Made by a program: the position numbers and the translations under genes. Positions 26,949-62,916 of a DNA stretch of 64,000 bases are shown here, piece by piece. The notes below the pieces were generated by a model that saw nothing but the letters and a program-made list of their open reading frames with translations, was not told the origin of the DNA and searched no databases. The DNA lies in sequence record LC739533.1. The stretch is one strand, 5' to 3'. The DNA comes from Escherichia phage phiWec179. Position 1 is the stretch's first letter, and every line of letters begins with the position of its first letter.

Positions 26949-26961
26949 TTAGGAGATTACT

Positions 26962-27266: not shown

Positions 27267-27303
27267 TTGAGAGCGTCTCTGTGCGATTTAAGGGGGTTCT
27301 CGG

Positions 27304-27534: not shown

Positions 27535-27556
27535 AGTAATCTCCTTTGTTCAGATA

Positions 27557-27581
27557 TGAAAAAACCCGCCGAAGCGGGTTC
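27557..27581 (-). terminator. rho-independent terminator (AACCCGC-TTCG-GCGGGTT + T6 on minus strand)
   Basis: Hairpin with downstream T-tract on minus strand. Confidence 0.5.
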
Positions 27582-27624
27582 ATGTGCTGCGGTAGGATCA
27601 GTATCCTACAGCACGAATTGTTTG

Positions 27625-36973: not shown

Positions 36974-37528
36974 TTAGTTCCAACTAATAATGATGTGTTT
37001 GATAACCCCAAAAACGCTATATTCCGCTGTTGTCAACGTTACATCTAAACCTTTTGCACGCAACATTGCGGCTACTACATTCACCCCTTCTTTCTGTTTA
37101 TCCATCTCTTCGTAAGAAGAAGGGCTGTTACACAAACCAAAACTCGAAGGTTCAAAATATTTTTGGAATTTTCCCTGTTCTGCATAATCTTCAATCTCCA
37201 GCAGAACACAGTCTACCATTTCAGTAAAATGGGAATTTGCTTGCAGTGCTTTACTACGTAGTTTATCACGTAAACTTCCCACAAACCCTTCCTGATCTTC
37301 TGTTTGCTCTACTTCACAGAAAGGATGAAGTTCAGCCCAGTCCCAAACGTCTCCCTCTAAAGCAAACGTTGTGTTGTAGTTGAAGAAGGTGCAACGTGGA
37401 AGTTCCCCGTTGAAAGAATCCTTCAGCAAAATGTATTTCTTACCATTTGCGTGGAAGAGTTCCCCTTTGATAACCTTGCCTTTCTGGATATCGCTGTCGG
37501 TGGAACGGGTGCAGATAAACTGTTTCAT
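36974..37528 (-). CDS. hypothetical protein (family-C C-terminal domain)
   Basis: C-terminal F.PSSFGLCNSP..VVAAMLRAKGLDV shared with ORF 43765..44067. Confidence 0.6.
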   Translation of the reverse strand: MKQFICTRSTDSDIQKGKVIKGELFHANGKKYILLKDSFNGELPRCTFFNYNTTFALEGDVWDWAELHPFCEVEQTEDQEGFVGSLRDKLRSKALQANSHFTEMVDCVLLEIEDYAEQGKFQKYFEPSSFGLCNSPSSYEEMDKQKEGVNVVAAMLRAKGLDVTLTTAEYSVFGVIKHIIISWN

Positions 37529-37582
37529 GATTTTCTCCTCTCTGTTTCGATGAGATGATTATGACAAAGACAGATCCTTCTG

Positions 37583-37909
37583 TCAACCAATTATTTCTTC
37601 TGCTATACGTTCTTTTACCCAGTTCACACGATCCACATTCAAATGACAACGGCTTCTTTCCGCTTCTAAGGTGTACTTTCCAAAATTACTGTTGAAAGGC
37701 AACACCATAACCAAATCTTTGCGGTAGAACTGCTCATGCATTTCATCCAGTACAGGTTCGTATCGTTCGCTTTCCCCCATATCGTAAAAATCATAGAGGT
37801 TCGAGCACAAACCTGTGCAACGGGTGAACGGTTCACCTTCAGGAGCACCAGCTTCCAACCATGCCAAATACGTGCGGTAAAATGTTAATAGTTCTTCGCT
37901 CATTTCCAC
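37583..37909 (-). CDS. family-A paralog
   Basis: LLTFYRTYLAWLEAGAP..GLCSNLYDF..LPFN..CHLNVDRVNWVKERIAEE. Confidence 0.65.
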   Translation of the reverse strand: MEMSEELLTFYRTYLAWLEAGAPEGEPFTRCTGLCSNLYDFYDMGESERYEPVLDEMHEQFYRKDLVMVLPFNSNFGKYTLEAERSRCHLNVDRVNWVKERIAEEIIG

Positions 37910-47131: not shown

Positions 47132-47512
47132 TCAGGCTCCTTTACGATTATGGAAACAATCTTTCACTCGCTCTTGCACCCACTCTACACGAAGCTTGTT
47201 TTCATGCGCTCTGTTGTGGTTATGCTCTTGCACATAGTCTTCGTAGTTCACATTAAAGGGAACACTGACAGACAATCCTGCACAACGAAATTGTTTCTTC
47301 ATTTCTTTTAATGTCGCATCACTTAGGGCACAAAGCTGATTTGCCTGTTCCTCACTGAAGTTACTGTCCCACATCTCATCCCAGATAAAACTATCCAAGC
47401 ATACACATAACCCATGCCTTGTGCGCTCTTTAGTATGATGATCAGCAAGCCAACTTTCATAGAAAGCTAACAACACCGGACTACTCAACGGAACATTTTT
47501 ACTCTCTTGCAT
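47132..47512 (-). CDS. family-A paralog (NIPLSS subgroup)
   Basis: MQESKNVPLSSPVLLAFYESWLADH..GLCVCL..VPFN..AHENKLRVEWVQERV; start at ATG 47512 (RBS gagaggag). Confidence 0.6.
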   Translation of the reverse strand: MQESKNVPLSSPVLLAFYESWLADHHTKERTRHGLCVCLDSFIWDEMWDSNFSEEQANQLCALSDATLKEMKKQFRCAGLSVSVPFNVNYEDYVQEHNHNRAHENKLRVEWVQERVKDCFHNRKGA

Positions 47513-47870
47513 GATAATCTCCTCTCTTGGTTTCATGACAAACATCCTAATTCTCAACGAGGAACATCTTACGATCAATCCTCGGCAATTACAATTCATT
47601 TATCATCGCTTTTCCCTATCAATTATTCTATATATACCTGTTATTTTTGACACCCCCTTTGGTCAAATATTAATCGGCAAAATATCTGGGGGTACTCTAT
47701 AAAATGATGCCCCCTGTTCCTGCAATTTATCGAGGAGAATATCATTCGACTATCATCGGCAAAGAGACAGAAAAGCCTTTGGTAGCAAGGATTTATGGCG
47801 AGTACGTCAGGACTGCTTAACGCGAATTTTTCGGCCCCTCCACTTCTGCGAGCCGGAATCCTCAAATATC

Positions 47871-47902
47871 AATGAGAATAATTATCATTATCATTCGTAT
47901 TC
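47871..47902. repeat. Fur-box-like ATTATC hexamer repeat; left copy of about 31-bp imperfect direct repeat
   Basis: aatgagaataattatcattatcattcgtattc; 28/32 identical to 62407-62438; core matches 19-bp Fur-box consensus as recalled at about 16/19. Confidence 0.5.
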
Positions 47903-48289
47903 AATAACTTAGGCGATCTTTTCCCCTGCTATAAGGTCGGGCCTAACTTAACCATCACTTTTCAAACAATCCTTTATCAATCAACTACTTAACAACCTAA
48001 ACATATGATTACTACGGTGTAAAGGTGCCGCCCATAACAGACTACCTATAAAATAGATGAGAATGATTATTATTCAGACAATTCTTACAACAAATCGACC
48101 AACAAATCAAGAATTTTCTTATTTTTATTCACGTTTAAGAGAACGTGCTCAACATTCCGCTACGCGTAACGGTTCGCCCCCAAAAGATTAGCCTTTGCTT
48201 TCCTGTATATTTATACACTATGTGCAAGGTGTCGCTACACGCTCGCCTTGCCCCGCATAATCCTTCACTGTGCTAATGATTTCATAGTG

Positions 48290-48445
48290 CAACAATAACA
48301 CTTATTATTATATTACGCTTAATTATTCTTACATACAATGCTAATAATAAGCCAGCGTAATTAGTGTAAGCGTAATACGCTTGCAATAATTGCAAGCTAC
48401 ATAATCACAAGAAATAACCATCACCGATGGTTATGATTGTGGGGG
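48290..48445. repeat. cluster of perfect palindromes in ORF-free region
   Basis: aagcgtaatacgctt and cttgcaataattgcaag adjacent; ataaccatcaccgatggttat; later atgataatggttatcat at about 48791. Confidence 0.5.
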
Positions 48446-48539
48446 TGTAGTTGGCTTATTATTAGCTCGCTACGTGTCCGGCGTAGCGTGCTAATGATGA
48501 CTCTATGAATGATTCATTTTGCAATTATTACAGTCTTCA

Positions 48540-48770
48540 CTATTTCGGCAATAGTTATTATTTTAATGGTTTCATTTGTTATCGTTAGTTAGTTGGTTGT
48601 TTTGTCGTGTTATCGTTATCTTGCTTAGTATTCATCATGGTTTGATTGTTTGTCGTTATCAATCATCTTTCTATTATTCCTTTGATTATGATTAGTTTGC
48701 TTATTGTTTTAAGTCGTTAGTTGGTTAGTTGTTGCGAACTGTTATCAACATTATAGTTATGCACTTATAT
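48540..48770. repeat. AT-rich iteron region (GTTATCGTT / TTAGTTGGTT repeats), candidate origin
   Basis: Repeated gttatcgtt, ttagttggtt, TTATCAACA (DnaA-box-like, one mismatch to TTATCCACA); no ORF of 60 aa or more in any frame across 47.6-49.05 kb. Confidence 0.4.
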
Positions 48771-49011
48771 TGCATAGATACGCAAGGGTAGATGATAATG
48801 GTTATCATTGCACTGGAAAGGAAGAAAACAGCCTTTTTCGGTTGTTTGTTGTTGGTTGTTGATCGATTTTAACCGCTCTAAATAGCTCTCTAATAGCCTG
48901 TTGCCCTGGGGTGTATGGTTATTCGTTTAATGGTTGATTAGCTCGATACCGCGATCTATTCAGTTTTGTTCTGTGTCGGTTTTTCATAGGCGGAATCTAT
49001 CAACATTGTTC

Positions 49012-49042
49012 GGGCAAAAAGAAAGGGCGCTTTGTGCGCCCT
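49012..49042 (-). terminator. rho-independent terminator closing the leftward small-gene array
   Basis: AGGGCGC-tttgt-GCGCCCT hairpin with T-tract on minus strand, just downstream of ORF 49057..49476. Confidence 0.5.
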
Positions 49043-49056
49043 TGTTTTGTTGTCAA

Positions 49057-50774: not shown

Positions 50775-50830
50775 GCGGCACCATTGCCGCCCTACGTGAT
50801 ACATCTTACACTATCAGATACATTGTGCAA
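50775..50830 (-). promoter_or_regulatory. promoter-leader cassette (TTGCAC-16-TAAGAT then GCGGC-accatt-GCCGC hairpin)
   Basis: Conserved gtgagcggcaccattgccgccctacgtgatacatcttac block. Confidence 0.5.
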
Positions 50831-50836
50831 GCTATT

Positions 50837-51028
50837 TTAGATCTCGTCACCTATATAATCAGATCTGTTTTTCTCTGTCATACGCTTAAGCAATTCTTGC
50901 ATATGGCTTATAGCTTGCAATGTGTCTTCTTCCAGGCTTGAATCGAGATAATCAGGATCATTCTTTACCTTGCTATGGTTGTGATACCGCAACGCTGCTA
51001 ATACCTTTCTAACTTGTTCTGCATTCAT
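50837..51028 (-). CDS. hypothetical protein
   Basis: 63-aa ORF. Confidence 0.5.
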   Translation of the reverse strand: MNAEQVRKVLAALRYHNHSKVKNDPDYLDSSLEEDTLQAISHMQELLKRMTEKNRSDYIGDEI

Positions 51029-51171
51029 TTTTATTACTCCTTAAAACCAGGTGCCAACCGTTTCCAATAAGTCACTGACTACCAGAACAACATTGATTAG
51101 CACATATTTAATCAGGAAGGGGATTAGCGCCAGCGTCGCTACTATGATCCCCATTATGATGATTATTTTTC

Positions 51172-51462
51172 TCATGGTTGGCGGTTTACGTGGGCTTTAC
51201 CGTTTACGGTCATCGGTATGGCCTCAAGGTCTGGATCTTCCTTAAGGTCGCGTGCAAGCTCACCGCACCGGATACCCTCGAATCCGTGGTATTCTGTTTC
51301 CCCGTCCTTAAAAGTTTTAGCGGCAAGGCATAGGCGATAATTAACACCGATCCGGTTTACTGCGTTGATATCGGTTAACGTGATCGATTCCGGCAAATCG
51401 TTAGCCATTACAGGCGCGTTAATACCAACAACCAGGGCAACTACTGCGATCATCTTTTTCAT
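51172..51462 (-). CDS. small secreted protein (signal peptide)
   Basis: MKKMIAVVALVVGINAPVMA N-terminus. Confidence 0.55.
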   Translation of the reverse strand: MKKMIAVVALVVGINAPVMANDLPESITLTDINAVNRIGVNYRLCLAAKTFKDGETEYHGFEGIRCGELARDLKEDPDLEAIPMTVNGKAHVNRQP

Positions 51463-51517
51463 GTGTCTATCCTCTTCCTATTGCGTTTAATGGGGGCGTT
51501 GCCGCCCCGCTTATGGT

Positions 51518-51754
51518 TTATTGCTTGATGTTATGATGAAAGTTATTTTCTTCAACGGCTTTTAAAATAAAAGCCGTGATCGCTTTCGTGTCTACTTGTT
51601 CGAACGTATCAGAATAGCACCAATAATAATCATCCCCTACTTTCGGCGGGTAAACCTGGACAAGGAGATCCCCACCATGTTGATCTATAAGCTCAACATG
51701 TAAGCCGGATGATTCAGCGGTTTTAACGGCGTTTAATACTGTTGCAATACTCAT
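51518..51754 (-). CDS. hypothetical protein
   Basis: 78-aa ORF. Confidence 0.5.
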   Translation of the reverse strand: MSIATVLNAVKTAESSGLHVELIDQHGGDLLVQVYPPKVGDDYYWCYSDTFEQVDTKAITAFILKAVEENNFHHNIKQ

Positions 51755-51798
51755 AATCTTTTCCTTTCTGATGTGGGGCGTTGCCGCCCCTTTGTTGA

Positions 51799-52098
51799 TT
51801 AGATCGCTGTTTCCAGTAGTTCGGCTAACGTCTTACCGCCTGATAGTTGGTCTAATGTTTGCTCTTCTGGCAAGAAATTAGCTGATATTAAACCGACTTG
51901 ATTCCCTTTGTGCCAGTTAGCCTGGCGGGTGATTCCATCCTTTAAGGATTTTACCGCCATTGTGCAACCGTCGCCAAATGATTCATTTTTATGGTCCATC
52001 ACTTCATAAGCGCCCAGCTTGCTGCTGTTAGGCACCATTAACGCGAATACATCACCAACAACCAGTTTTTCTACGGTAACAATAGCGATAGTTTCCAT
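51799..52098 (-). CDS. hypothetical protein
   Basis: 99-aa ORF preceded by cassette. Confidence 0.55.
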   Translation of the reverse strand: METIAIVTVEKLVVGDVFALMVPNSSKLGAYEVMDHKNESFGDGCTMAVKSLKDGITRQANWHKGNQVGLISANFLPEEQTLDQLSGGKTLAELLETAI

Positions 52099-52116
52099 TT
52101 TGTTTTCCTCATTATC

Positions 52117-52173
52117 GGCGGCACCATTGCCGCCCTACGTGGTAAATATTATCACACTGGCGATCTGTGTCAA
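52117..52173 (-). promoter_or_regulatory. promoter-leader cassette (TTGACA-16-TAATAT then GGCGGC-accatt-GCCGCC hairpin)
   Basis: Perfect -35 and perfect 6-bp stem. Confidence 0.55.
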
Positions 52174-52179
52174 TACTTT

Positions 52180-52566
52180 TTATTCAATATAAATCAAATT
52201 ATCTTCACCAATGTAAGCCGACACGTCCGGCATGAATTTAGCGGCATTTGTTAGGCGGTTGGCTGTGTTAGTTGTGTATATTTCAGGGCGATCCCAAAAT
52301 CCTACGCCGTGACCGTTACGGGTAAAATGTAAATCATTGCCGATCTGGTTGGCTGTAGCGCCGTCGCTCATTGCCTCAGAGATAGCGGCAAGATTAGCAT
52401 TAATAAAGGCTGTTACATCTTGGGCGATTCGTTCATCCGCACCAGGAGAAAAATCATAATCGCCTAAGTTATCAATAAAATCACCTTCGTGATCCCTGGC
52501 TGATTCAGCAAAAATAAAAGCCTCTTTATAACCGTTGATGATTTCAATAATGATTTCTGTTTTCAT
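52180..52566 (-). CDS. hypothetical protein
   Basis: 128-aa ORF. Confidence 0.6.
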   Translation of the reverse strand: MKTEIIIEIINGYKEAFIFAESARDHEGDFIDNLGDYDFSPGADERIAQDVTAFINANLAAISEAMSDGATANQIGNDLHFTRNGHGVGFWDRPEIYTTNTANRLTNAAKFMPDVSAYIGEDNLIYIE

Positions 52567-52787
52567 GCTGTACGCTCGACAATAATAATAGTTTGCGGGA
52601 TCTCGTTTTCTACTACTAACAAGGCTTTTTTCTGTGTGATAGATATTTTAACACGTTGTAAAGTAGCGGTAAAGTCTTTCATTTCGTTATGCGCCGACTT
52701 GCTGCAATGCCAGATCTCAGGCTTACCGACTTGTAAGCCGCGTAAAAATTCTGTTTTGCCTGTTTTGTTCGTGATCATCTGTTTCAC
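52563..52787 (-). CDS. hypothetical protein
   Basis: 74-aa ORF. Confidence 0.5.
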   Translation of the reverse strand: MKQMITNKTGKTEFLRGLQVGKPEIWHCSKSAHNEMKDFTATLQRVKISITQKKALLVVENEIPQTIIIVERTA

Positions 52788-52788
52788 C

Positions 52789-52893
52789 TTAACCGATACC
52801 GTGGGAAGATAGGATCATATTAGCCATAGTTGCAACCACTCCAACCGATAACGCCAGGCCAACCACTGCAACCGTGAAAATTTTCTCTAACAT
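52789..52893 (-). CDS. small hydrophobic peptide (34 aa)
   Basis: Not in track; RBS gaggg; single hydrophobic helix. Confidence 0.3.
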   Translation of the reverse strand: MLEKIFTVAVVGLALSVGVVATMANMILSSHGIG

Positions 52894-52956
52894 GATGCTA
52901 CCCTCATTAATGGGCGTTGCCTTATTGCCCCGCCCTACAAGATGAATACTACGCGC

Positions 52957-53139
52957 TTATTTTGCTGTTGTCAACAACGGGCGAAAAAACTTTTTGATCT
53001 GGCTTGCTGTTAGGCGCATATCTGCTTTGAGCGTTGCCAGGCGATAAGCTTTACCCTTAACCAGTTTATGGTGTCCGGTGCCGTTGCCGATGATAACATC
53101 AATTTCACACAATACGCGGGAAGCATCAATCTTTTTCAT
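52957..53139 (-). CDS. hypothetical protein
   Basis: 60-aa ORF. Confidence 0.45.
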   Translation of the reverse strand: MKKIDASRVLCEIDVIIGNGTGHHKLVKGKAYRLATLKADMRLTASQIKKFFRPLLTTAK

Positions 53140-53221
53140 GTTGTTACCTTTCGTGTTATGGGGCGCTTGTCGCCCCCTGTCTGATAAAGATAATCCCTTT
53201 CGGGATATCTGTCAACTATTT

Positions 53222-53407
53222 TTATTGTACGGTGTGGCGATCGCTGTATTCAGCGTAAAACTCACATCCATCGTCACGGCTATCAAGTTTAACGATGTAC
53301 CCGCTATTCCAACGTTCAACTGATACTACCGGATAATACTTCCCGTTAAGGATATTTTTCACCAGGTCGCCTTTTACCAGTTCTTTCGTTTTCTTATAAG
53401 TAGTCAT
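53222..53407 (-). CDS. hypothetical protein
   Basis: Start at ATG 53407 just after the leader cassette. Confidence 0.5.
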   Translation of the reverse strand: MTTYKKTKELVKGDLVKNILNGKYYPVVSVERWNSGYIVKLDSRDDGCEFYAEYSDRHTVQ

Positions 53408-53606
53408 GATGTTTTCTCTTCTGTTTTGCGGTGGACCGTTCCGCCGCCCTATGTGGTAAACTATACGCGCCAACGTTCCAGGCGTCAAGCATATTTTTAA
53501 AATTATTTTCTACAACGTAAAACGCCCCAGCATAAGCCAGGGCGCACTAATTAAATCAGGTAGGGGGATTGCATTGCCTTACACCTTTTAGGCTGTTAGC
53601 TGGCGA

Positions 53607-53834
53607 TTAATAGCGTAGGATGTTTACACGCTCATCCCGCCCCAAGATATCCTCATATCTGTTTCCCCTTCCTTCGTACCAGATGATCACGGTATGAGGA
53701 TCAAACGGATTGTTTTCGATAGCCGTTACCTTGCAGAAGTCATAAGACGGGAACGGATAAACGCCAACCTGTAAACGCGCCCGATCTCCTGGGCGAATGG
53801 TAGCGGCACGATCTGCAATGATATTGTTATACAT
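53607..53834 (-). CDS. hypothetical protein
   Basis: 75-aa ORF. Confidence 0.5.
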   Translation of the reverse strand: MYNNIIADRAATIRPGDRARLQVGVYPFPSYDFCKVTAIENNPFDPHTVIIWYEGRGNRYEDILGRDERVNILRY

Positions 53835-53958
53835 GGTGCACCCCCTTAATATTTTTCTTTTTCTTTGCTTCCGTTCGTCTAAGGTTACGGCTTGACTTGT
53901 TACGCAAGGCGCTCAAATCATCATAACCTTTAAAAGGTTGCATATTGTTCGGATTCAT
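53827..53958 (-). CDS. small basic protein
   Basis: Start at ATG 53958 (RBS aagggg). Confidence 0.4.
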   Translation of the reverse strand: MNPNNMQPFKGYDDLSALRNKSSRNLRRTEAKKKKNIKGVHHV

Positions 53959-53968
53959 GCTACGCCCC

Positions 53969-54247
53969 TTAACGGTTATAGATATTGTGGATAGTGATAA
54001 AGGCGCTACGGTCATAAGCTGCCAAATCGGGATTGATCCAAGTGTTATCTAATAGTGTTTCAAGGATAATAGACTCATCATGAATAGCATCATAGAAATC
54101 AGGGTTAATAATGGTGTCAATGTCGCTTTCTGTTAACTCTACATTCAGCTTGCAAACCGCTTGCAAATCGGCTTCACGCTTCCAATCTTGCAGATTAGTA
54201 GTCAGAATGTTGGTGATCTCTTCGGTAGATAATTTGGTGATGGTCAT
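53969..54247 (-). CDS. hypothetical protein
   Basis: 92-aa ORF preceded by cassette. Confidence 0.55.
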   Translation of the reverse strand: MTITKLSTEEITNILTTNLQDWKREADLQAVCKLNVELTESDIDTIINPDFYDAIHDESIILETLLDNTWINPDLAAYDRSAFITIHNIYNR

Positions 54248-54265
54248 GATATTTTCTCTCTGTTA

Positions 54266-54323
54266 GGCGGGGCGCTTGTCGCCCCTATGTGATACATCTT
54301 ATCAGGTTGATTCAGCTTGTCAA
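54266..54323 (-). promoter_or_regulatory. promoter-leader cassette (TTGACA/TAAGAT then GGGGCG-cttgt-CGCCCC hairpin variant)
   Basis: ctctctgttaggcggggcgcttgtcgcccctatgtgatacatctta block. Confidence 0.5.
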
Positions 54324-54329
54324 TACTTT

Positions 54330-54536
54330 TTAACGTGTCGCGTAAATAATATTACTTGCCGGACTACTGCAAACCAGGTTAAGCGGCTTGCTGTTATATT
54401 GCATCTTGTCGGCTTGTTTGCTTGCTGCGATGATTCCATCTATTACACGTTGCAAACTAACCTTTACCGCCTTTTTTGCCAACCGTTGACGCTTTACCAG
54501 TGCCTGGATCTTTTTCTTGTCTGCGTTGCTTAACAT
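54330..54536 (-). CDS. hypothetical protein
   Basis: 68-aa ORF. Confidence 0.5.
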   Translation of the reverse strand: MLSNADKKKIQALVKRQRLAKKAVKVSLQRVIDGIIAASKQADKMQYNSKPLNLVCSSPASNIIYATR

Positions 54537-54545
54537 GGTGCGCCC

Positions 54546-54725
54546 TTACTTGTTAGCCGGATTGTATGCCAGGATCGCGCCGCTTGCTTTCACGCTTTCA
54601 TCTTCATAGTTGCGCAGATCGTTTTCTGTAAGATTGAGCGCGATCACTTCCTCGATCTCAATGCCAGTGGCAAGGGCGATCTCTTTAATGATGTTTGATG
54701 ATCTGATAACGTTTACTGTTTTCAT
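54546..54725 (-). CDS. hypothetical protein
   Basis: Start at ATG 54725. Confidence 0.45.
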   Translation of the reverse strand: MKTVNVIRSSNIIKEIALATGIEIEEVIALNLTENDLRNYEDESVKASGAILAYNPANK

Positions 54726-54735
54726 GGTGTGCACC

Positions 54736-54855
54736 TTATAAGATGATTGATAAGATAGTGATAACGAAAGCGATAACACCAACGGCGATCGTAGTCTTAC
54801 GCCCTTCGGATACTGCCGGATTCTCTACCGTGTATTCTACTGTGTATTTGTTCAT
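54736..54855 (-). CDS. small membrane peptide (39 aa)
   Basis: Not in track; RBS gagagga; hydrophobic C-terminus. Confidence 0.3.
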   Translation of the reverse strand: MNKYTVEYTVENPAVSEGRKTTIAVGVIAFVITILSIIL

Positions 54856-54954
54856 TGTGTTATCCTCTCGCTTGCTTTGAGAACTATTCCCGCCGCCCTA
54901 TGAATTAAATATACACTATCCCAAAATGATTGCAAGCCTTTTTCTAAATTATTT

Positions 54955-55239
54955 TTATGCAGTAAACAGACCATCATTTACAACGGCGGCGATGATCTCC
55001 CGTGCCATTGATTCAGGGAACGGGGCGCTATAGTCCTGGCTTGTCTCGTCGCTGTCTGTTACCCAATGATAAGCCAACGAGTAAAAGCCTTTACTCCCTG
55101 TTTTCAGTGAAACGATGATCACTCGGTTAAGTCCATCGGTAAACGTTGCCGTTAATGTGTTATCATCTTGCGTCATGTTGGACAAGTAAGCGGCATCATT
55201 AACCAGGGAAAACAGTAGCACCGTGTTAGCTTTAACCAT
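54955..55239 (-). CDS. hypothetical protein
   Basis: Start at ATG 55239 (RBS gagga); the track start 55269 falls inside the leader hairpin loop. Confidence 0.55.
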   Translation of the reverse strand: MVKANTVLLFSLVNDAAYLSNMTQDDNTLTATFTDGLNRVIIVSLKTGSKGFYSLAYHWVTDSDETSQDYSAPFPESMAREIIAAVVNDGLFTA

Positions 55240-55295
55240 GATTTGATCCTCAAACGGGCGCGGCACCATTGCCGCCCTACGTAATACACTTTACC

Positions 55296-55496
55296 TTATT
55301 TCTTCCAAAAAGCAAGTTTATTTGCAATTGGTGACAAATAACGTTTACCCGCGTAAAACAGTACAGCGACACTAACCACGGCGGCGATCTCATGCATAGC
55401 CGACGGGAAACGAGTATCATAATAAGATCCAATAATAGCAATAGCGGCAACGGCTGCAACGTCGATAATGATTTTTTCTTGTTTTGCGGTGATCAT
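55296..55496 (-). CDS. small membrane protein
   Basis: 66 aa, hydrophobic helices. Confidence 0.5.
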   Translation of the reverse strand: MITAKQEKIIIDVAAVAAIAIIGSYYDTRFPSAMHEIAAVVSVAVLFYAGKRYLSPIANKLAFWKK

Positions 55497-55584
55497 AATA
55501 TTTACCTTTTTGTATGGTGGGGGGAACTATTCCCCGCCCTGATGTAATACAGTTTAACAGATCCGGTTATAGTGTCAACCACTT

Positions 55585-55770
55585 TTAAAGATATTTTATA
55601 CTGATAACATTTTCCGGTTTAACCTGGTTGTGATAAGCATCAATGTAAATCAAACCATCGTTAGAAACGCCCAGGATCACGCCTTGCGCAATAAAACCGT
55701 ATCGGTCGCGGTAACGTGCCGCCACTTTGTTCGCTGCGTTGTAGGCTGTTTTAATCTCGTTTAAGGTCAT
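55585..55770 (-). CDS. hypothetical protein
   Basis: 61-aa ORF, RBS gagagga. Confidence 0.5.
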   Translation of the reverse strand: MTLNEIKTAYNAANKVAARYRDRYGFIAQGVILGVSNDGLIYIDAYHNQVKPENVISIKYL

Positions 55771-55828
55771 GTGCTGTTATCCTCTCGTTAGATATAAGAA
55801 AGGGCGCTATTTGCGCCCTTGATTTGTT

Positions 55829-55975
55829 TTAGTCTTCCAGGTCCATCCATGCACGTTTCTCGGTGCGGTCGCGCTTAGTTTTGTTGCGCTTGTCGCCCTT
55901 GCGGATCACTTCTTCATTCCACGCTGCGCGTGTTTTAGAAGATTGGATTTTTTCGGCGCGATTAGATGTATTCAT
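55829..55975 (-). CDS. small basic protein (48 aa)
   Basis: Not in track; follows leader cassette at about 55990-56070. Confidence 0.35.
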   Translation of the reverse strand: MNTSNRAEKIQSSKTRAAWNEEVIRKGDKRNKTKRDRTEKRAWMDLED

Positions 55976-56073
55976 GATGTTTCCTCTTTTTAGTTGTGAG
56001 CGGCACCATTGCCGCCCTACGTGTTTTAATTTACTTTATTGTTTGATGCCTGTCAACTACTTTTAAAAACTTT

Positions 56074-56427
56074 TTATTCGTGGGAAAGTGTAAGGATCAC
56101 ACCTGCAATATATAACCAATAGTTTTCCCTTTCTTTCTGGATCTTGTTTTCGCTACTACGCTCGTTAATGTACCCCCAGGATGTTAACAACCGATCTACT
56201 TCCCAATACTCGAAAGCTATATTAATATTTGACGGTAAACCTTGTAACCATGATGCTATTGCTCTGATAATGTTATGATCGTAACGTTTTTGATTATCGG
56301 TGTACCAATATTCAGATTTAAAACAGCGCATCAATTCCGCGATCTTCTCTTTCTCTTCTGTGATGCCATACTCGCTATAATCAATTGAGGCCAGAATATA
56401 AAGTTTAATTGCATTTTGTGCTTTCAT
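56074..56427 (-). CDS. hypothetical protein
   Basis: 117-aa ORF preceded by cassette. Confidence 0.6.
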   Translation of the reverse strand: MKAQNAIKLYILASIDYSEYGITEEKEKIAELMRCFKSEYWYTDNQKRYDHNIIRAIASWLQGLPSNINIAFEYWEVDRLLTSWGYINERSSENKIQKERENYWLYIAGVILTLSHE

Positions 56428-56448
56428 GGTGTCTCTCTTCTGTTGTGA

Positions 56449-56504
56449 GCGGCACCATTGCCGCCCTATGTGTTACATCTTACCGGATTTTTAAAACTTG
56501 TCAA
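56449..56504 (-). promoter_or_regulatory. promoter-leader cassette (TTGACA-16-TAAGAT then GCGGC-accatt-GCCGC hairpin, CACAACAGAAGAGAGA, ATG)
   Basis: Worked example: minus strand reads TTGACAagttttaaaaatccggTAAGATgtaacacatagGGCGGCaatggtGCCGCtcacaacagaagagagacaccATG. Confidence 0.55.
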
Positions 56505-56726
56505 TCATTTTTCTACTATCATTTGATAACCTGTTTCAAGGTTAGTAAACACCGTGATCCCGTCCTGGCGTTCACTCATAAGCAAGCAAGGCGCTAACAT
56601 CCTTCCTACTTCCTTGCACTCGTTATAAGCGGCGGTAATGTCTCCCGCTGCTTTGTCTTCTGTGGTGAATGTATCGTTTACGTAAACTTTACCAGCGACA
56701 ACGGCGACAATAGCAAAAGTGATCAT
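56505..56726 (-). CDS. hypothetical protein
   Basis: Start at ATG 56726. Confidence 0.5.
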   Translation of the reverse strand: MITFAIVAVVAGKVYVNDTFTTEDKAAGDITAAYNECKEVGRMLAPCLLMSERQDGITVFTNLETGYQMIVEK

Positions 56727-56804
56727 GATGTTTTCCTCTTTGTGTTTTTCGTTTTGATTAGTTGATAATACAGCAATTCGCAGATTAGTCTTTAGCAATT
56801 CATG

Positions 56805-57023
56805 CTATTTACTCACAACAGTATCGAAAACAAATTTTTCTTTGTTGTCGAAGCTAACATATCCGATTCGACCACGCAAGCCGCCAGTAGTGCCGTATTC
56901 GTAACCATCAAGGCCTTTAACCTTCCAATCCGTACCCATTAAAACCGCATTATATTTCTGACCAACTACAAACGCGCCACCAGTTGATTCAATGCAAACA
57001 ACTTTAATTTTACGGATTGCCAT
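56805..57023 (-). CDS. hypothetical protein
   Basis: 72-aa ORF. Confidence 0.5.
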   Translation of the reverse strand: MAIRKIKVVCIESTGGAFVVGQKYNAVLMGTDWKVKGLDGYEYGTTGGLRGRIGYVSFDNKEKFVFDTVVSK

Positions 57024-57101
57024 TTTCTTTCTCTCTTTGTGGTGATTGGTTTCTCTTCTCTATAGCGCCCATTATAAGGCGCTATAACGAAAAGTCAACG
57101 A

Positions 57102-57269
57102 TTATTTTTTACGGCTTAAGGTGCCCAAGTTATCAGCGTGACGCAGACCAGGGAAGATCCAAGCGCCGGATTCATCTTTTACAGGTGCCTTAACACTTGC
57201 GCCCAGGTTGGCGGCGTTAACTTTACGTGCTACGTTGCGAGCGGCTTCACGGGTAGTAAAAGTAATCAT
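57102..57269 (-). CDS. small protein (55 aa)
   Basis: Not in track; follows leader cassette. Confidence 0.4.
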   Translation of the reverse strand: MITFTTREAARNVARKVNAANLGASVKAPVKDESGAWIFPGLRHADNLGTLSRKK

Positions 57270-57511
57270 GATGTTTTCCTCTTCTCTTTGTTAGGCGGTG
57301 GACCATTCCGCCGCCTTGATGTAATACAGTTTACTCTATTTTTATTTCTTTGCAACTACTTTTATATTTTCTTTCTTTGCCTCTTCCACCTGGTCCGCCC
57401 ACTGCTTACCCCACGTTTGAGCGTTATAGTGATATTGACAAAGAGCAACACCACGTTTTAAACCAGCGATAGACTTTTTACCACATTGACAAGTTTTCAT
57501 TTTGTGATCCC

Positions 57512-57724
57512 TTAGTTGATGATAGTCAGTGTAAAATTATAATCACCATTCTTATATAACACCATATTACCGAAGGTGCCGACTCGACGCATATCCATAC
57601 GGATACCTATAACATCTTTAACGTCTTTAATGTTTTTAACGCCCGTGATATCTTTATTAAAATATTCCTCGTCTGAAAATAAAACTTGACTTGCATTTTT
57701 TAACAGTGTGCGGATATTAGCCAT
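57512..57724 (-). CDS. hypothetical protein
   Basis: 70-aa ORF. Confidence 0.5.
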   Translation of the reverse strand: MANIRTLLKNASQVLFSDEEYFNKDITGVKNIKDVKDVIGIRMDMRRVGTFGNMVLYKNGDYNFTLTIIN

Positions 57725-57749
57725 CGTGATAATCTCTCTTCTGTTGTGA

Positions 57750-57807
57750 GCGGCACCATTGCCGCCCTACGTAATACAGTTTACTCTTTTTCTTTCCGGT
57801 GTCAACA
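57750..57807 (-). promoter_or_regulatory. promoter-leader cassette (TTGACA-18-TAAACT then GCGGC-accatt-GCCGCC hairpin)
   Basis: Conserved gtgagcggcaccattgccgccctacgtaatacagtttac block. Confidence 0.5.
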
Positions 57808-57813
57808 ATCTTT

Positions 57814-58041
57814 TTAGATTAATTCGTCCAGGCATAACAGGCGATCAACGTTGAGATCGGTCAGGCTGATGGTTGGCACCTGATAAGATTCGATGTACTC
57901 GACGCTTGCATATTCCCCAAAGTTAGCAATAGCCCACTTATTCAAGATCTCACATACATCATTAATCTTTTTGTTTGTTACAACTGCAATAACCTGGGAA
58001 GTGCCAACGGTGCCGGATACGCGAACAATATTGATAGCCAT
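57814..58041 (-). CDS. hypothetical protein
   Basis: 75-aa ORF. Confidence 0.5.
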   Translation of the reverse strand: MAINIVRVSGTVGTSQVIAVVTNKKINDVCEILNKWAIANFGEYASVEYIESYQVPTISLTDLNVDRLLCLDELI

Positions 58042-58060
58042 GATTTTTCTCTCTTCTGTT

Positions 58061-58118
58061 AGGCGGGGCGCTTGTCGCCCCTATGTGATACATCTTACAC
58101 TAATTTAAAACTTTGTCA
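58061..58118 (-). promoter_or_regulatory. promoter-leader cassette (hairpin variant GGGGCG-cttgt-CGCCCC)
   Basis: Near-identical to the copy at 54266. Confidence 0.5.
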
Positions 58119-58214
58119 AATTATTTTCTATTTCTTCCGTAATAGCCCAATTTATGATCTAAGCTAAAACGTTTTGTGAGATAGGTCGAACGATGTTTCA
58201 TTTTTATGTCTCCT

Positions 58215-58454
58215 TTACATTCCAACCATAGCGGCGCGGATCGCGGTAGTGCTATACTTGAAACCGTCTGGAGTTTTATCTTGTCCAGTCTGTTCCAGAA
58301 AGAGCATCATATCACGCGCCGCATCGTTACGGTTAGAATTATAACTAATAAATTCTTTCGCGGTGCGGTATAATGATTCATCGTTATTAATCCAAAGGCT
58401 TACATTCCAATGAGTTTTGTTTTTGTGACCTAAGAACATTTTTGATTTAGCCAT
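58215..58454 (-). CDS. hypothetical protein
   Basis: 79-aa ORF. Confidence 0.5.
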   Translation of the reverse strand: MAKSKMFLGHKNKTHWNVSLWINNDESLYRTAKEFISYNSNRNDAARDMMLFLEQTGQDKTPDGFKYSTTAIRAAMVGM

Positions 58455-58543
58455 GATGTTAATCTCTTTTTCAGTGAGGCGGGAACTATTCCCGCGCCCT
58501 ATGTAATACAGTTTACTCTTTTTATTCGTGCTGTCAATGCTTT

Positions 58544-58897
58544 TTATAAATCTTTTTTACGTTTTACATCGCTTGCATGACTGTATACAGCGATCCCATT
58601 ATCACGACAAAAACGGGTAAGGTATGATCCGCGTGAAAACTCTTTCCCTTCCAGGTCAACAACCTTGCTAAATTCTTCCAGGGCAACGGTATCAAAATGA
58701 TCACCATAACCATATTGAAACGGCACGTTAACAACTTCAATCAATTTACCGCCGATCTCAACGTCCACGCTTAAAGAAAAATATGTGTTACCGTAGGACT
58801 GTTGAAACCAGCGACGGGCGCTAATGTGAACGGCTTCAATCTCACCAATTTTAAATTGAGTGTTACCCAGGATCGCAACGTTGATATTTTTAGCCAT
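58544..58897 (-). CDS. hypothetical protein
   Basis: 117-aa ORF. Confidence 0.6.
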   Translation of the reverse strand: MAKNINVAILGNTQFKIGEIEAVHISARRWFQQSYGNTYFSLSVDVEIGGKLIEVVNVPFQYGYGDHFDTVALEEFSKVVDLEGKEFSRGSYLTRFCRDNGIAVYSHASDVKRKKDL

Positions 58898-58993
58898 GAT
58901 TTTTTCTCTCTTTTTGGTTAGTGGGAAGTGTTCCCGATAAAAGTTATTATGCTTATACTATCGTTTTTTGTCAATAGTATAAGACTAAAACTT

Positions 58994-59173
58994 TTAACGA
59001 TAATCATCGTAGGCTTTATTAACCTGGCGAATATAACATTCGAAAGCGAGATCAATAGAATCATATTCCCGCACATAATCCCCGTAAGAAACTACATACA
59101 CACCTTTTTGATCCTCAAACGTCATGATGATAGAATCCAGGCCGATGATTTCAGTTTTAGCGATGATAGTCAT
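58994..59173 (-). CDS. small protein (59 aa)
   Basis: Not in track; follows leader cassette at 59190-59250. Confidence 0.45.
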   Translation of the reverse strand: MTIIAKTEIIGLDSIIMTFEDQKGVYVVSYGDYVREYDSIDLAFECYIRQVNKAYDDYR

Positions 59174-59261
59174 AATAATAACCTTTTTATTGTTGGCGGC
59201 ACCATTGCCGCCCTACGTGATAAACTATACCAGAATTTTAAACAGTGTCAAACGTTTTTTC

Positions 59262-59507
59262 TTAGTTTGCGAAATATGGCGCGGCGGCTGATGCCGTTAA
59301 TCTCCAAGTGATTTGGCTATCGATCAAGTATTCTTCATTCTTGATCCGCACGGTATCAATCGAGAAGTTACTGAAAGGCTTGCTCTTGATTTTACGAACA
59401 ACCGTTACACGACGGTTATTTTTCATCTCTTTTAACTGAATCCAGGCGTAACCTTTTTCATTGACAAATATTTCATTGTGATTGGTGATAGATGATAAGT
59501 GTTTCAT
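59262..59507 (-). CDS. hypothetical protein
   Basis: 81-aa ORF. Confidence 0.5.
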   Translation of the reverse strand: MKHLSSITNHNEIFVNEKGYAWIQLKEMKNNRRVTVVRKIKSKPFSNFSIDTVRIKNEEYLIDSQITWRLTASAAAPYFAN

Positions 59508-59530
59508 GATTTTTCTCTCTTCTGTTTTGA

Positions 59531-59589
59531 GCGGTGGACCATTCCGCCGCCCTATGTGTTACATCTTACTACTTTTTTAAACATTGTCA
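59531..59589 (-). promoter_or_regulatory. promoter-leader cassette (hairpin variant GCGGtGG-accatt-CCgCCGC)
   Basis: gagcggtggaccattccgccgccctatgtgttacatcttac block with TTGACA on minus strand. Confidence 0.5.
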
Positions 59590-59598
59590 AGGATATTT

Positions 59599-59880
59599 TT
59601 AACTATATGATCCACATCGTTCGCAGTAGTGATCATCGTCGTCATCTGCTACCTGGCTGATAAAATGATCTACCTTTGCTTTCAAATTATTATAATTGCT
59701 TTCTACTTCCTGTAGTCGTCGTTGGTAGTATTCCAGGGCTTGCACATAGGCCATTTGTTCGGTTTTAGCTTGCATAGCTAAATTCATGCCACGCGTTTCA
59801 TCGTATAACCAATAACCATCATTACATTCACTAATAGATAGTGTAGGGCTTAGTTTTTCGTGACGGATAACCTTGCTCAT
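59599..59880 (-). CDS. hypothetical protein
   Basis: 93 aa; C-terminal CERCGSYS. Confidence 0.5.
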   Translation of the reverse strand: MSKVIRHEKLSPTLSISECNDGYWLYDETRGMNLAMQAKTEQMAYVQALEYYQRRLQEVESNYNNLKAKVDHFISQVADDDDDHYCERCGSYS

Positions 59881-59890
59881 AGTGTGCCCC

Positions 59891-60124
59891 TTACTTCAAA
59901 ATGATTGTTGTGATAACTGCTACGGTGATCCAGAATGGAACAACTAAGATAATAGCGTTAATCGTTCCAACTGTCAAACTATTTTCTTTCTTGATCATCA
60001 TGTTTTCCTTACAGTGTCCAAAGAATGATTTCAAGTGCAGCACGGAAACCAGGAATAAAATTGATTGCAAAAAACAGGGAAGTAGTAAACATTTTTCTAT
60101 CCTTTCAGTTGTGAGCGGCACCAT
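59891..60124 (-). CDS. small hydrophobic membrane protein(s)
   Basis: The track ORF may be two short hydrophobic peptides; exact start unclear. Confidence 0.35.
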   Translation of the reverse strand: MVPLTTERIEKCLLLPCFLQSILFLVSVLHLKSFFGHCKENMMIKKENSLTVGTINAIILVVPFWITVAVITTIILK

Positions 60125-60170
60125 TGCCGCCTGATGAGTTAACTATAAGGGATCACGTTTTACCTGTCAA
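60115..60170 (-). promoter_or_regulatory. promoter-leader cassette
   Basis: gtgagcggcaccattgccgcc with TTGACA on minus strand at about 60170. Confidence 0.45.
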
Positions 60171-62098: not shown

Positions 62099-62133
62099 TT
62101 GACAAGCCCAGGGATCGGGCTTATACTGTTTTA
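62099..62133 (+). promoter_or_regulatory. orphan sigma70-type promoter TTGACA-17-TATACT
   Basis: Consensus -35 at 62099-62104, 17-nt spacer holding an AGCCC/GGGCT inverted repeat, -10 TATACT; no downstream ORF of 60 aa or more. Confidence 0.5.
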
Positions 62134-62140
62134 CATACAG

Positions 62141-62240
62141 AAGAGGAAGCGCCACCCCACGGCGTAAAGGCGGGGCTAACATACCAGGGGCACTGGTTGG
62201 AAGGTCGATCGCCGGGAGGCTGGGCGCTATATATTTGTAA
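62141..62240 (+). ncRNA. candidate small structured RNA downstream of orphan promoter
   Basis: GC-rich, self-complementary stretches after the promoter; no credible ORF; ends uncertain. Confidence 0.25.
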
Positions 62241-62351
62241 AGAAATGTAAAGATAAAATAATCGCTTGCTTTCCTGGCTGGATCTGTTATTCTTATTACA
62301 TGGCGAGGGGACACGGGAGCGCGAGACAATCACCGGACCTGCCCGTCATTC

Positions 62352-62378
62352 TGCAAATGAGAAAAATTCTCATTTGCA
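62352..62378. promoter_or_regulatory. perfect 27-bp palindrome, operator-like
   Basis: tgcaaatgagaa aaa ttctcatttgca, 12-bp arms. Confidence 0.5.
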
Positions 62379-62405
62379 AATAAGACTCATTCGCATTTAA
62401 TAATT

Positions 62406-62438
62406 GAATGAGAATCATTCTCATTCTCATTCGTATTT
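62406..62438. promoter_or_regulatory. perfect 21-bp palindrome plus right copy of about 31-bp direct repeat
   Basis: gaatgagaat c attctcattc (62406-62426); 62407-62438 is 28/32 identical to 47871-47902. Confidence 0.5.
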
Positions 62439-62448
62439 CGATTTTAAG

Positions 62449-62463
62449 TGAGAATAATTCTCA
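62449..62463. promoter_or_regulatory. perfect 15-bp palindrome, operator-like
   Basis: tgagaat a attctca; third site sharing the TGAGAA(T) half-site. Confidence 0.45.
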
Positions 62464-62477
62464 TTTCGGTAATTTTC

Positions 62478-62540
62478 ACGTAAACTTTAGAATTTGCTTT
62501 TCAACTTTCACTTTTGTAAAAGCAAAAAAACTTTAAATAC
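62478..62540. repeat. direct repeat copy 1 (about 62 bp)
   Basis: acgtaaactttagaattt..tcacttttgtaaa..aaactttaaata. Confidence 0.5.
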
Positions 62541-62616
62541 CTGGTGCGCGCGACTTTTTAAAAAATTTTTCTCGGTTTTTTGCTTTGAAATCTGGCCCAC
62601 CAATTTGAGATAGTGT

Positions 62617-62680
62617 ACGTAAACTTTAGAATTTGGTTTTGGATTCTCACTTTTGTAAACTCGTAAAAAGTTTAAATAAT
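62617..62680. repeat. direct repeat copy 2 (about 62 bp)
   Basis: acgtaaactttagaattt..tcacttttgtaaa..aaagtttaaata; identical 18-nt and 13-nt blocks with copy 1. Confidence 0.5.
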
Positions 62681-62808
62681 TGTAGGGATTTTGAGATAGT
62701 TTGCTTGTAAGGTTTGAGATAATCCTTCCCGAAGATGTTACGCAGCCTACAGCCTACCTGAATGCTCGTCTAACGAGATTAACTCTAAAAGATGAGTGTT
62801 GGTGTAGC

Positions 62809-62845
62809 TAAAGAGAAAAGGCTCTCTACGGTGTTGTAGGAGCCT
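62809..62845 (-). terminator. rho-independent terminator for NADAR gene
   Basis: GGCTCCTAC/GTAGAGAGCC hairpin (one bulge) with T-rich tract on minus strand. Confidence 0.5.
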
Positions 62846-62916
62846 TATTTCTGTGGCACAAAGTTGACGTATTCTTTTTAAAAACGAATTTTTTCAAAAT
62901 ATCACGAATATCGCCT

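Follow-up and report, generated by a model that had tools for sequence, protein, structure and literature searches.

A non-coding gap in phiWec179

The stretch of DNA analysed here, hereafter the window, comprises 64,000 nucleotides of the genome of Escherichia phage phiWec179 (LC739533.1), and our subject is a non-coding gap of ~1.5 kb within it (47513-49056), together with the direct terminal repeat (DTR) that this gap appears to contain. Nucleotide comparison with deposited phages identifies the window as belonging to a phAPEC8/phi92-like myovirus of the Stephanstirmvirinae. The region is 98% identical to phiWec181 and phiWec186 and 81-90% identical to other members of Phapecoctavirus, with weaker similarity to Justusliebigvirus (the phi92 group). 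The gap has been left empty by annotation in every annotated relative and is flanked by homologues of phAPEC8_0018 (left) and phAPEC8_0017 (right), both encoded on the minus strand:

start codon at 47512, minus strand: left flanking gene, with the Shine-Dalgarno sequence GAGGAG; relatives annotate their first coding sequence from the equivalent position
stop at 49057, minus strand: right flanking gene, homologue of phAPEC8_0017

A preliminary description of this DNA had presented the gap as a candidate replication origin or regulatory hub, packed with palindromes and AT-rich iterons and free of open reading frames (ORFs) of 60 aa or more. Strictly, the last statement does not hold, as a 74-aa TTG ORF lies within the gap (47641-47865, minus strand) and one of 63 aa crosses its left edge (47511-47702, plus strand). 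Neither is conserved as a protein. More generally, no gap ORF of at least 30 aa showed protein conservation in distant relatives, where the matches mirror DNA identity and indels break the frames, and small proteins encoded in the gap were ruled out on this ground. No tRNA or tmRNA was found.

The AT-richness is real, with a GC content of 0.36 at 48-49 kb compared with ~0.42 elsewhere, and the lowest GC of the window falls in the gap. So is the abundance of palindromes: counting perfect inverted repeats with an arm of at least 7 and a loop of at most 7, the gap holds six against 0.89 +/- 0.92 in composition-matched random sequence, a roughly six-fold excess. All four palindromes named earlier are present within 1-3 nt of the places given for them (48368-82, 48379-97, 48414-34 and 48792-808); the two reported as immediately adjacent overlap by 4 nt rather than abut. 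The only other 1.46-kb tile of the window with six such repeats lies at ~26200-27700, where the plus- and minus-strand gene blocks converge and the GC skew changes sign, and probably reflects convergent terminators. As had also been noticed, the gap separates compositionally different gene blocks (27-47.5 kb and 49-61.5 kb), which differ in skew and promoter content.

A predicted terminal repeat within the gap

Several records of deposited relatives start or stop inside the homologous gap. In Schickermooser and Mt1B1_P17, exact repeats of 329 and 328 bp stand at both record ends. In more than 10 independently deposited relatives, record positions 1-328 align end to end with window positions 47819-48149, and in several of them, including WPEC1/2/4/6 and BI-EHEC, a second copy is found at the other record end. 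In the RefSeq entry of phi92, the corresponding position is annotated as a 343-bp 'right end direct terminal repeat', and the record of the Klebsiella phage Kp phi1_175008 terminates at the same base. Since more than 10 independent records open at the same homologous base, the boundaries are fixed, sequence-defined and non-permuted. A short repeat present at both ends is thus observed in the homologues and is predicted by homology for phiWec179. The following features are relevant here (the arrow marks the proposed cut):

47819..48149, no strand assigned: DTR of ~331 bp, in single copy in this collapsed assembly and predicted by homology at both ends of virion DNA
47815..47821, plus strand: left cut-site motif GCT↓TAAC (GCTTAAC), placing the chromosome end at 47817/8 or 47818/9
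48147..48153, plus strand: right cut-site motif GCT↓CAAC; the DTR stops at 48149
48157..48172, no strand assigned: short GC-rich near-palindrome CCGCTACGCGTAACGG, then conserved TTCGCCCCCAAAAG, just inside the right boundary
47513..47818, minus strand: left-end leader, the unique non-coding DNA (~300 bp) between the DTR and the first left-end gene; variable, with indels, the ORFs inside not conserved
47566..47594, minus strand: TTGTAA-17-TAAGAT (8/12), a possible weak sigma-70 promoter of the left-end genes

These observations agree with published work on the wider group to which this phage belongs. Terminal repeats of 328 bp (Schickermooser; PMC6563267), 342 bp (BME3; PMC12210895), 459 bp (Gotham; PMC7471380) and 514 bp (KPP-1, assigned by PhageTerm to the class 'T7 type'; PMC9862379) have been reported, and such repeats have been introduced with the wording 'Like other Stephanstirmvirinae members' (PMC12695924). 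Two-fold coverage or read-start peaks at the repeat were described for KPP-1 (PMC9862379) and BME3 (PMC12210895). Assemblers collapse terminal repeats and open the sequence at random (PMC5557969), which would explain why the DTR is seen only once and in the middle of the window.

We therefore consider it very probable that a linear, T7-type chromosome has its two physical ends in this gap, joined here by collapse to one copy of the DTR. The main identity of the gap is that of a genome terminus and not that of a demonstrated origin. The blocks at 27-47.5 kb and 49-61.5 kb would then occupy opposite ends of the virion chromosome, and this arrangement would account for the compositional break between them. 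The candidate promoter of the left-end genes has a homologous counterpart (TTGTAA-17-TATGAT, 9/12) in phAPEC8, Schickermooser and arall.

Both edges of the DTR sit in a direct repeat of one motif, GCT↓YAAC. We compared the edges in the Wec clade, Phapecoctavirus, Justusliebigvirus, Kp phi1_175008, Citrobacter phage Tr1 and metagenomic contigs. The left-edge context (R)GGTGCTT↓AACGCGA is kept in all lineages examined, and exactly this site forms a record end in Mt1B1_P17, Schickermooser, phi92 and Kp phi1_175008. The right edge reads ...GCT↓CAACA and is preceded by GT, AT, TT or AG according to lineage; while these bases just upstream vary, the core heptamer GCTCAAC is invariant across the Wec-clade, Phapecoctavirus, Justusliebigvirus, Kp phi1 and Tr1 sequences. 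At the place of the near-palindrome at 48157-48172, phAPEC8, Schickermooser and Kp have a hairpin of different sequence, as seen by inspection rather than by statistics.

A conserved folded element on the plus strand

To the right of the DTR, ~870 bp of non-coding DNA extend up to the terminator of the early block. They include a single-copy element in which three of the previously named palindromes belong to one fold, detected by covariation, minimum free energy (MFE) folding and a covariance model:

48340..48488, plus strand: folded element of ~150 nt with five helices
48340-54 with 48452-66, plus strand: P1, a 15-bp long-range stem that encloses the long arm and a hairpin
48357-73 with 48377-93, plus strand: P2, the long arm
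48396-410 with 48437-51, plus strand: P3
48414-34, plus strand: P4, a hairpin
48468-88, plus strand: P5, a hairpin that follows the part closed by P1

In the MFE fold of the window sequence, the two 'adjacent palindromes' merge into one arm with a covarying outer helix, which occurs as GTAATTA/TAATTGC, GCAATAA/TTATTGC, GCAACAA/TTGTTGC or GTAATGA/TCATTGC. The long-range stem P1 varies between lineages, always with compensation, as AAGCCA/TGGCTT, AACGCA/TGCGTT, ACCGCA/TGCGGT or ATTAAC.../...GTTAAT. Similarly, the hairpin ATAACCATC/GATGGTTAT is replaced in other lineages by ATAACTATC/GATAGTTAT, ATTACTATT/AATAGTAAT, GAAACTATT/AATAGTTTC or GTGACTATT/AATAGTCAC.

The comparison covered 17 genomes from five or more lineages. 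RNAalifold applied to a MAFFT alignment of the 17 homologues gave 98.4% of cells paired and 14 pairs changed on both sides; none of 500 shuffles reached these values, and sliding the partners lowered pairing to 26-49% here and to 25-50% over all such controls. In an alignment based on the covariance model, 97.3% of cells were paired and 17 pairs covaried. This model, built from ten sequences, produced exactly one hit per genome (114-182 bits), always at this locus and in this orientation, and recovered the four Justusliebigvirus sequences that had been left out of it (114-119 bits). Av-05, the remainder of the window and 22 unrelated loci gave no match to it. The homologous gap of Av-05 (Vequintavirinae; 1440-1720) has a long-range stem of its own (ACACAATAACGC...GCGTTATTGTGT) and GC-rich hairpins where the Stephanstirmvirinae fold lies, which may be an analogous structure of different sequence. 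A scan of metagenomes with a 17-base palindromic pattern was too permissive to be of use, with true homologues at 3 of ~120 loci.

The two strands are not equivalent. Folded as RNA, the plus strand reaches -75.9 kcal/mol (z -9.5) and the minus strand -58.3 (z -7.0); with DNA parameters, too, the plus strand of 48340-48488 forms a good fold. Alternation between Watson-Crick and G.T is seen at ten pairs and alternation between Watson-Crick and A.C at none, which indicates that the plus strand is the folding strand, as RNA or as single-stranded DNA. This asymmetry, combined with a stem spanning 100 nt, suggests that selection acts on a single-stranded molecule of plus polarity and not on a duplex palindrome for a dimeric protein.

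One possibility, which we hold tentatively, is that the core of the gap (48340-48488) is a gene for a structured non-coding RNA of ~150 nt and plus polarity that would be produced in the course of infection and act in trans; possible roles are those of a packaging RNA like the phi29 pRNA, or of a decoy or regulator of a host factor. Structure kept on one strand by compensatory changes, the general mark of a structured RNA, is what we found: a multi-helix fold with a three-way junction, in which the covarying pairs are accompanied by G.U alternation and by no A.C, and which is far more stable on the plus strand. The P2 arm is expanded in Justusliebigvirus only, a lineage-specific change as occurs in RNA families, and a -10-like hexamer (TATAAT, TACAAT, TAGAAT or TATATT) stands directly upstream of P1 in four of seven lineages by inspection. 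However, we found no conserved sigma-70 promoter (-35/-10 pair) and no plus-strand intrinsic terminator bracketing the element, whose polarity is antisense to all neighbouring genes. Rfam 15 gave no hit in the whole window at the gathering threshold, pRNA included; at E <= 10 over the element the best match was ARRPOF, with 18 bits against a threshold of 127. A literature search for transcriptomes of this subfamily returned nothing usable, and the tolerance of G.T pairs is compatible with single-stranded DNA as well. In sum, the chances that the element acts as a plus-polarity transcript seem to us about evenly balanced, and action as displaced single-stranded DNA, in the manner of a priming or loading signal, somewhat less probable.

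An origin of replication in the gap?

The fold bears on the proposal of the preliminary description that the gap is an origin, in which an initiator or DnaA would bind repeats in the AT-rich stretch, the DNA would open and forks would start. In T7-type phages, origins and promoters near the ends take part in replication and packaging, and an origin here would be compatible with a terminus. The gap contains the lowest GC of the window, its strand-specific fold resembles single-strand initiation signals, and the polarity of the fold is that of the strand that would be displaced by a fork moving inward from this end. The folded element could have an origin-related role as a single-strand priming signal.

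The specific arguments for an origin nevertheless fail. The supposed iterons GTTATCGTT and TTAGTTGGTT occur in two copies each, at irregular spacing, in a segment whose identity to other genera does not exceed background. An exact DnaA box (TTWTNCACA) is absent; the DnaA-box-like TTATCAACA is not conserved in Justusliebigvirus, nor are the near matches in general conserved, of which the gap holds eight with one mismatch against 3.8 expected from its length. A skew analysis had been suggested as a check, and GC skew is negative on both sides of the gap; the sole sign change in the 64-kb window, at 27 kb, coincides with the switch in gene orientation. Finally, no initiator gene is adjacent, and the repeat-rich non-coding DNA at 62.1-62.9 kb has a claim to be an origin that is no weaker. 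We thus regard an origin in the gap as improbable. What survives of the original idea is a dense cis-acting region, whose identity as a chromosome end had been missed.

Fur-type palindromes at the chromosome ends

Four palindromes of the gap share the 7-1-7 form TGAKAAT-N-ATTMTCA, the first two lying within the DTR:

47873..47887, no strand assigned: box 1, TGAGAATAATTATCA, 7-1-7 palindrome; its minus-strand sequence GATAATGATAATTATTCTC matches the Fur consensus at 17/19
48058..48072, no strand assigned: box 2, TGAGAATGATTATTA, 14/19 to the Fur consensus
48733-47, no strand assigned: box 4, 7-1-7 palindrome
48793-807, no strand assigned: box 3, TGATAATGGTTATCA, 15/19 to the Fur consensus

The Fur-box-like hexamer repeat noticed earlier (ATTATC, 2.5 copies at 47881-95) proved to be part of one of these four boxes. 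Four further boxes form an array at 62355-62466, including one at 62.41 kb with 15/19 to the consensus. With at most one mismatch, 11 boxes were found against 1.1 expected, and the exact ones all fall in the gap and in the non-coding region at 62.4 kb. Their agreement with the 19-bp or 7-1-7 Fur operator sequence is accompanied by a ten-fold enrichment over chance. The boxes are kept in Justusliebigvirus and Kp phi1, with box 1 present in phAPEC8, phi92, arall and Kp phi1, and boxes 3 and 4 also in Av-05 of the Vequintavirinae. Box 2 of phi92 is TGATAATGATTATCA, the exact Fur 7-1-7 consensus. The distance from box 3 to the terminator described below is fixed at 221-223 nt in Justusliebigvirus, Kp phi1 and Av-05.

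These data raise the possibility, which we find doubtful, that the gap serves as an iron-responsive hub: host Fur-Fe would bind the four gap boxes and the four boxes at 62.4 kb and control phage promoters according to the iron status of the host, or replicated copies of the boxes would titrate Fur. The agreement of boxes 1 to 3 and of the 62.41-kb box with the consensus, the exact box of phi92, the enrichment and the conservation across two subfamilies all point in this direction. Moreover, relatives encode the iron-dependent NrdAB, and the E. coli sequences most similar to box 1 (16/19) lie between fepB-type and siderophore non-ribosomal peptide synthetase (NRPS) genes at two of the three places inspected. 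These BLAST matches are individually non-significant (E >= 2) and serve as a pointer only, the third place not being an iron locus. The phage consensus, TGAGAAT-N-ATTCTCA with a preference for GAGAAT, also differs from TGATAAT-N-ATTATCA, so that a dimeric protein encoded by the phage is just as possible. None of the boxes is overlapped by a convincing promoter; weak promoter-like sites (9/12) overlap boxes 3 and 4 with inconsistent conservation. Fur binding is a prediction from sequence, and the boxes may equally well be bound by host Fur or by a phage protein of the same specificity.

Conserved islands, promoters and terminators around the junction

The remaining non-coding DNA of the gap comprises the following parts:

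48489..48730, no strand assigned: spacer, GT-rich on the plus strand, carrying both copies of GTTATCGTT and of TTAGTTGGTT
48733..48807, no strand assigned: box 4, the inverted repeat TATGCA-N7-TGCATA (48758-76) and box 3, in the same arrangement in Justusliebigvirus, Kp phi1 and Av-05
48938..49022, no strand assigned: deeply conserved block of 85 bp, TTAGCTCGATACCGCGATCTATTCA...TTTTGTTCTGTG...CTATCA, adjoining the terminator
49014..49043 (stem 49023-49043), minus strand: intrinsic terminator closing the right-hand early block, stem AAGGGCGC/GCGCCCTT, tail TTTCTTTTT

In distant genera, where the flanking genes have fallen to ~39-43% identity, discrete non-coding islands stay conserved. The repeat edges remain at 52-77% (59-77% against arall and Kp), the folded element at 72-79%, the segment from box 4 to box 3 at 61-70% and the block beside the terminator at up to 80%. 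The last of these is ~80% identical to Vequintavirinae phages and 80% to arall, compared with ~39% for the flanking genes; it showed no unusual folding on either strand, which fits a constraint on primary sequence, as expected of protein binding. Conservation across genera holds for the islands; the left third of the gap is variable, and the GT-rich spacer shows only background identity (51-56%) to other genera and a folding energy like that of shuffled sequence (z +0.7).

These variable parts are what one would expect if the gap were nothing specific, that is, an untranslated spacer or mosaic junction with leftover terminators and chance AT-rich repeats. The comparison with phAPEC8 could be read in the same way: identity rises to >90% at ~48340 and does not drop again in the flanking genes, the pattern of a mosaic boundary, and for this reason we rejected it as evidence of constraint and used the distant genera instead. 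This explanation is nevertheless hardly credible, as it is already contradicted by the exact coincidence of the record ends, the boundary motifs, the strong covariation in the folded element, the spacings fixed across subfamilies and the islands that keep 60-80% identity across genera where flanking genes keep ~40%.

The block to the right of the gap is an early region served by the host polymerase, with more than 25 near-consensus sigma-70 promoters on the minus strand. Inside the gap itself, no sigma-70 promoter of at least 10/12 was found in the window, phAPEC8, Schickermooser or arall; the search covered five lineages, and two 10/12 hits of Tr1 were not mapped to the gap. The phage-specific promoter motif CTATAAAAT, the T4-late-like TATAAATA and the phAPEC8 'PHIRE' hairpin were either not enriched or not in the gap. 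The last of these, TAGGGCGGCAATGGTGCCGC, occurs in eight copies on the minus strand (50775-60134), and several of those checked lie directly downstream of a near-consensus sigma-70 promoter. In phAPEC8, the authors labelled this motif 'PHIRE promoters', but its appearance is rather that of a conserved stem-loop in the 5' leader of early transcripts.

The T-tail of the terminator is invariant on the minus strand only. The early block contains its bidirectional stem (AAGGGCGC...GCGCCCTT) at two places, 49023-49043 and 55800-55820. A plus-strand small RNA running from a promoter at box 3 to the terminator at 49023-43 was considered and rejected, since the plus-strand T-tail is lost in Justusliebigvirus, Kp and Av-05; the ordinary folding of this segment (z -0.4) and the weakness of the promoter weaken it further.

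A second non-coding stretch lies at 62099-62900. It begins with a near-consensus plus-strand promoter (TTGACA-17-TATACT, 62099-62127), followed by a GC-rich fold of ~95 nt (z -2.8). It also contains the four Fur-like boxes (62355-62466), with spacings of 23-40 nt, and two direct copies of a 62-nt sequence (62478-62539 and 62617-62678). This stretch may be a regulatory region, an origin or a locus for a small RNA.

Two further observations concern the surroundings. The first left-end gene (47132-47512, minus strand) matches two tandem genes by tblastn in both Schickermooser and phAPEC8 (phAPEC8_0018/0019), which suggests that the first two genes after the chromosome end are paralogues. In addition, close relatives (~85-90% over the region) have been deposited as phages of Pseudomonas (PsgM04F), Campylobacter (B15, A145) and Acinetobacter (ABPW7). 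Their genomes are essentially those of coliphages, and the host labels thus look doubtful.

Possible roles of the terminal elements

It is tempting to suggest that the terminase recognizes the concatemer junction through the conserved repeat edges and the neighbouring islands and that nicking occurs at GCT↓YAAC. The DTR would then be regenerated by extension synthesis, as described for this class of phages (PMC5557969). The islands may also be start sites of replication or recombination from the ends. In such a scheme, the folded element would work as a single-stranded nucleic acid of plus polarity, and the boxes would be bound by host Fur or by a protein of the same specificity.

Several points weigh against this interpretation. 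The repeat of phiWec179 and its edges are placed by homology only, not from reads, and the interior of the repeat is only ~50-70% identical to those of relatives with known ends. The closest deposited relatives, phiWec181 and phiWec186, are linearized elsewhere, at an assembly overlap, and give no independent support. The phiWec181 record (LC739534.1) opens inside a dTDP-glucose 4,6-dehydratase gene, and exactly 148 bp are shared between its start and its end; we accordingly rejected these record ends as evidence of termini; the physical terminal repeat of this phage lies at record positions 37387-37717. The motif GCT↓YAAC is too short to be specific, as the window has six near matches to the decamer where 6.3 are expected, so that other signals must contribute. 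Nicks on opposite strands, moreover, are not what a motif repeated in direct orientation would by itself lead one to expect. The tie of the islands to packaging or replication is our inference only. No plus-strand promoter or terminator brackets the folded element, which makes its transcript a candidate only. In the pair formed with phAPEC8, lastly, the high identity that runs into the genes reflects a mosaic boundary and not constraint.

Terminal repeats are known in the subfamily, and placing one in this genome is therefore ordinary. By contrast, four features appear undescribed, as neither Rfam nor the papers searched yielded a description of them: the motif shared by the two cut sites, the strand-specific element with its covariation, the blocks of fixed spacing and the terminal Fur-type boxes. 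The uncertainty that remains concerns mainly the function of these elements and less their description. Two linked readings would go further, and we advance them as unlikely but worth stating: the plus-strand fold would represent a new class of terminal element across the Stephanstirmvirinae (a packaging or replication RNA, or a single-stranded DNA loading signal for short-repeat ends), and the ends and the 62.4-kb array would be working Fur operators. If so, the folded element would be required to process or replicate short-repeat chromosome ends, and a lytic phage would read the iron status of the cell, or, once replicated to hundreds of copies, titrate Fur and thereby induce host iron uptake, which would supply its own iron-dependent ribonucleotide reductase.

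To our knowledge, T7 and T3 are the only short-repeat phages in which junction recognition and repeat regeneration have been studied in depth. Large phages of the rV5/phi92/phAPEC8 group are in wide use for phage therapy work, yet reports on their repeats have been confined to the length. Our analysis supplies cis elements for this group, namely a candidate cut-site motif at both edges, a strand-specific fold supported by covariation and conserved blocks of fixed spacing. It also raises the possibility of a strictly lytic phage with host Fur operators at its chromosome ends. In practical terms, it shows where the genomes of this group should be opened for annotation.

Comparison with known systems

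Compared with the Fur operators of E. coli (consensus GATAATGATAATCATTATC, or TGATAATnATTATCA in the 7-1-7 form), the phage boxes match at 14-17 of 19 positions, are likewise palindromic 7-1-7 sequences and form overlapping hexamer arrays, and their scores equal those of candidate host sites near siderophore promoters. Unlike those operators, they lie in the DTR and terminal non-coding DNA of a lytic phage, without an identifiable promoter, and prefer GAGAAT over GATAAT.

The folded element resembles two kinds of structured nucleic acid. Single-strand initiation signals (the complementary-strand origin of G4, the primosome assembly site of phiX174, the minus-strand origin of M13 and plasmid ssi) are ~60-150 nt long, contain several hairpins and function on one strand, which matches the polarity-specific fold and its tolerance of G.T and not of A.C. 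They act in single-stranded DNA phages and plasmids, whereas the single-stranded state of the phiWec179 plus strand is presumed, and no sequence similarity is known. The phi29 pRNA is a structured RNA of ~120-170 nt, encoded beside the genome end and needed for packaging, and is thus alike in size and place. Phi29 differs in its protein-primed replication and in having no terminal repeat of this type; the folded element, for its part, has no Rfam hit to pRNA and its transcription is putative.

The concatemer junction of T7 and T3 consists of the terminal repeat with packaging signals and a promoter or origin on its flanks, and an inverted repeat is located close to the right end. Chung and Hinkle in 1990, and Fujisawa and Morita in 1997, are said to have described the T7 packaging signals (pacB), a promoter/origin (phiOR) and a hairpin intermediate just inside the right-end repeat. 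The phiWec179 junction has in common with this system a short exact repeat, fixed ends and flanks that are non-coding and contain hairpins some hundreds of bp inward of the right-end repeat. It shows no sequence similarity to it and belongs to a myovirus of ~150 kb that uses the host RNA polymerase; we know of no covarying multi-helix element or Fur-type boxes in T7. The ends of this class are thought to be made by nicks and extension synthesis (PMC5557969).

Homologous counterparts are the DTRs of phi92 (Justusliebigvirus) and of Schickermooser and Mt1B1_P17 (Phapecoctavirus). Published notes on them give the repeat length, without the cut-site motif, the boxes or the folded element. Their interiors are ~50-70% identical to that of phiWec179, whose ends are placed by homology to them. 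They consist of homologous sequence, lie at the same place between the equivalents of phAPEC8_0017 and phAPEC8_0018, and have the same boundary motifs and internal boxes, with a length of 320-343 bp compared with 331 bp here.

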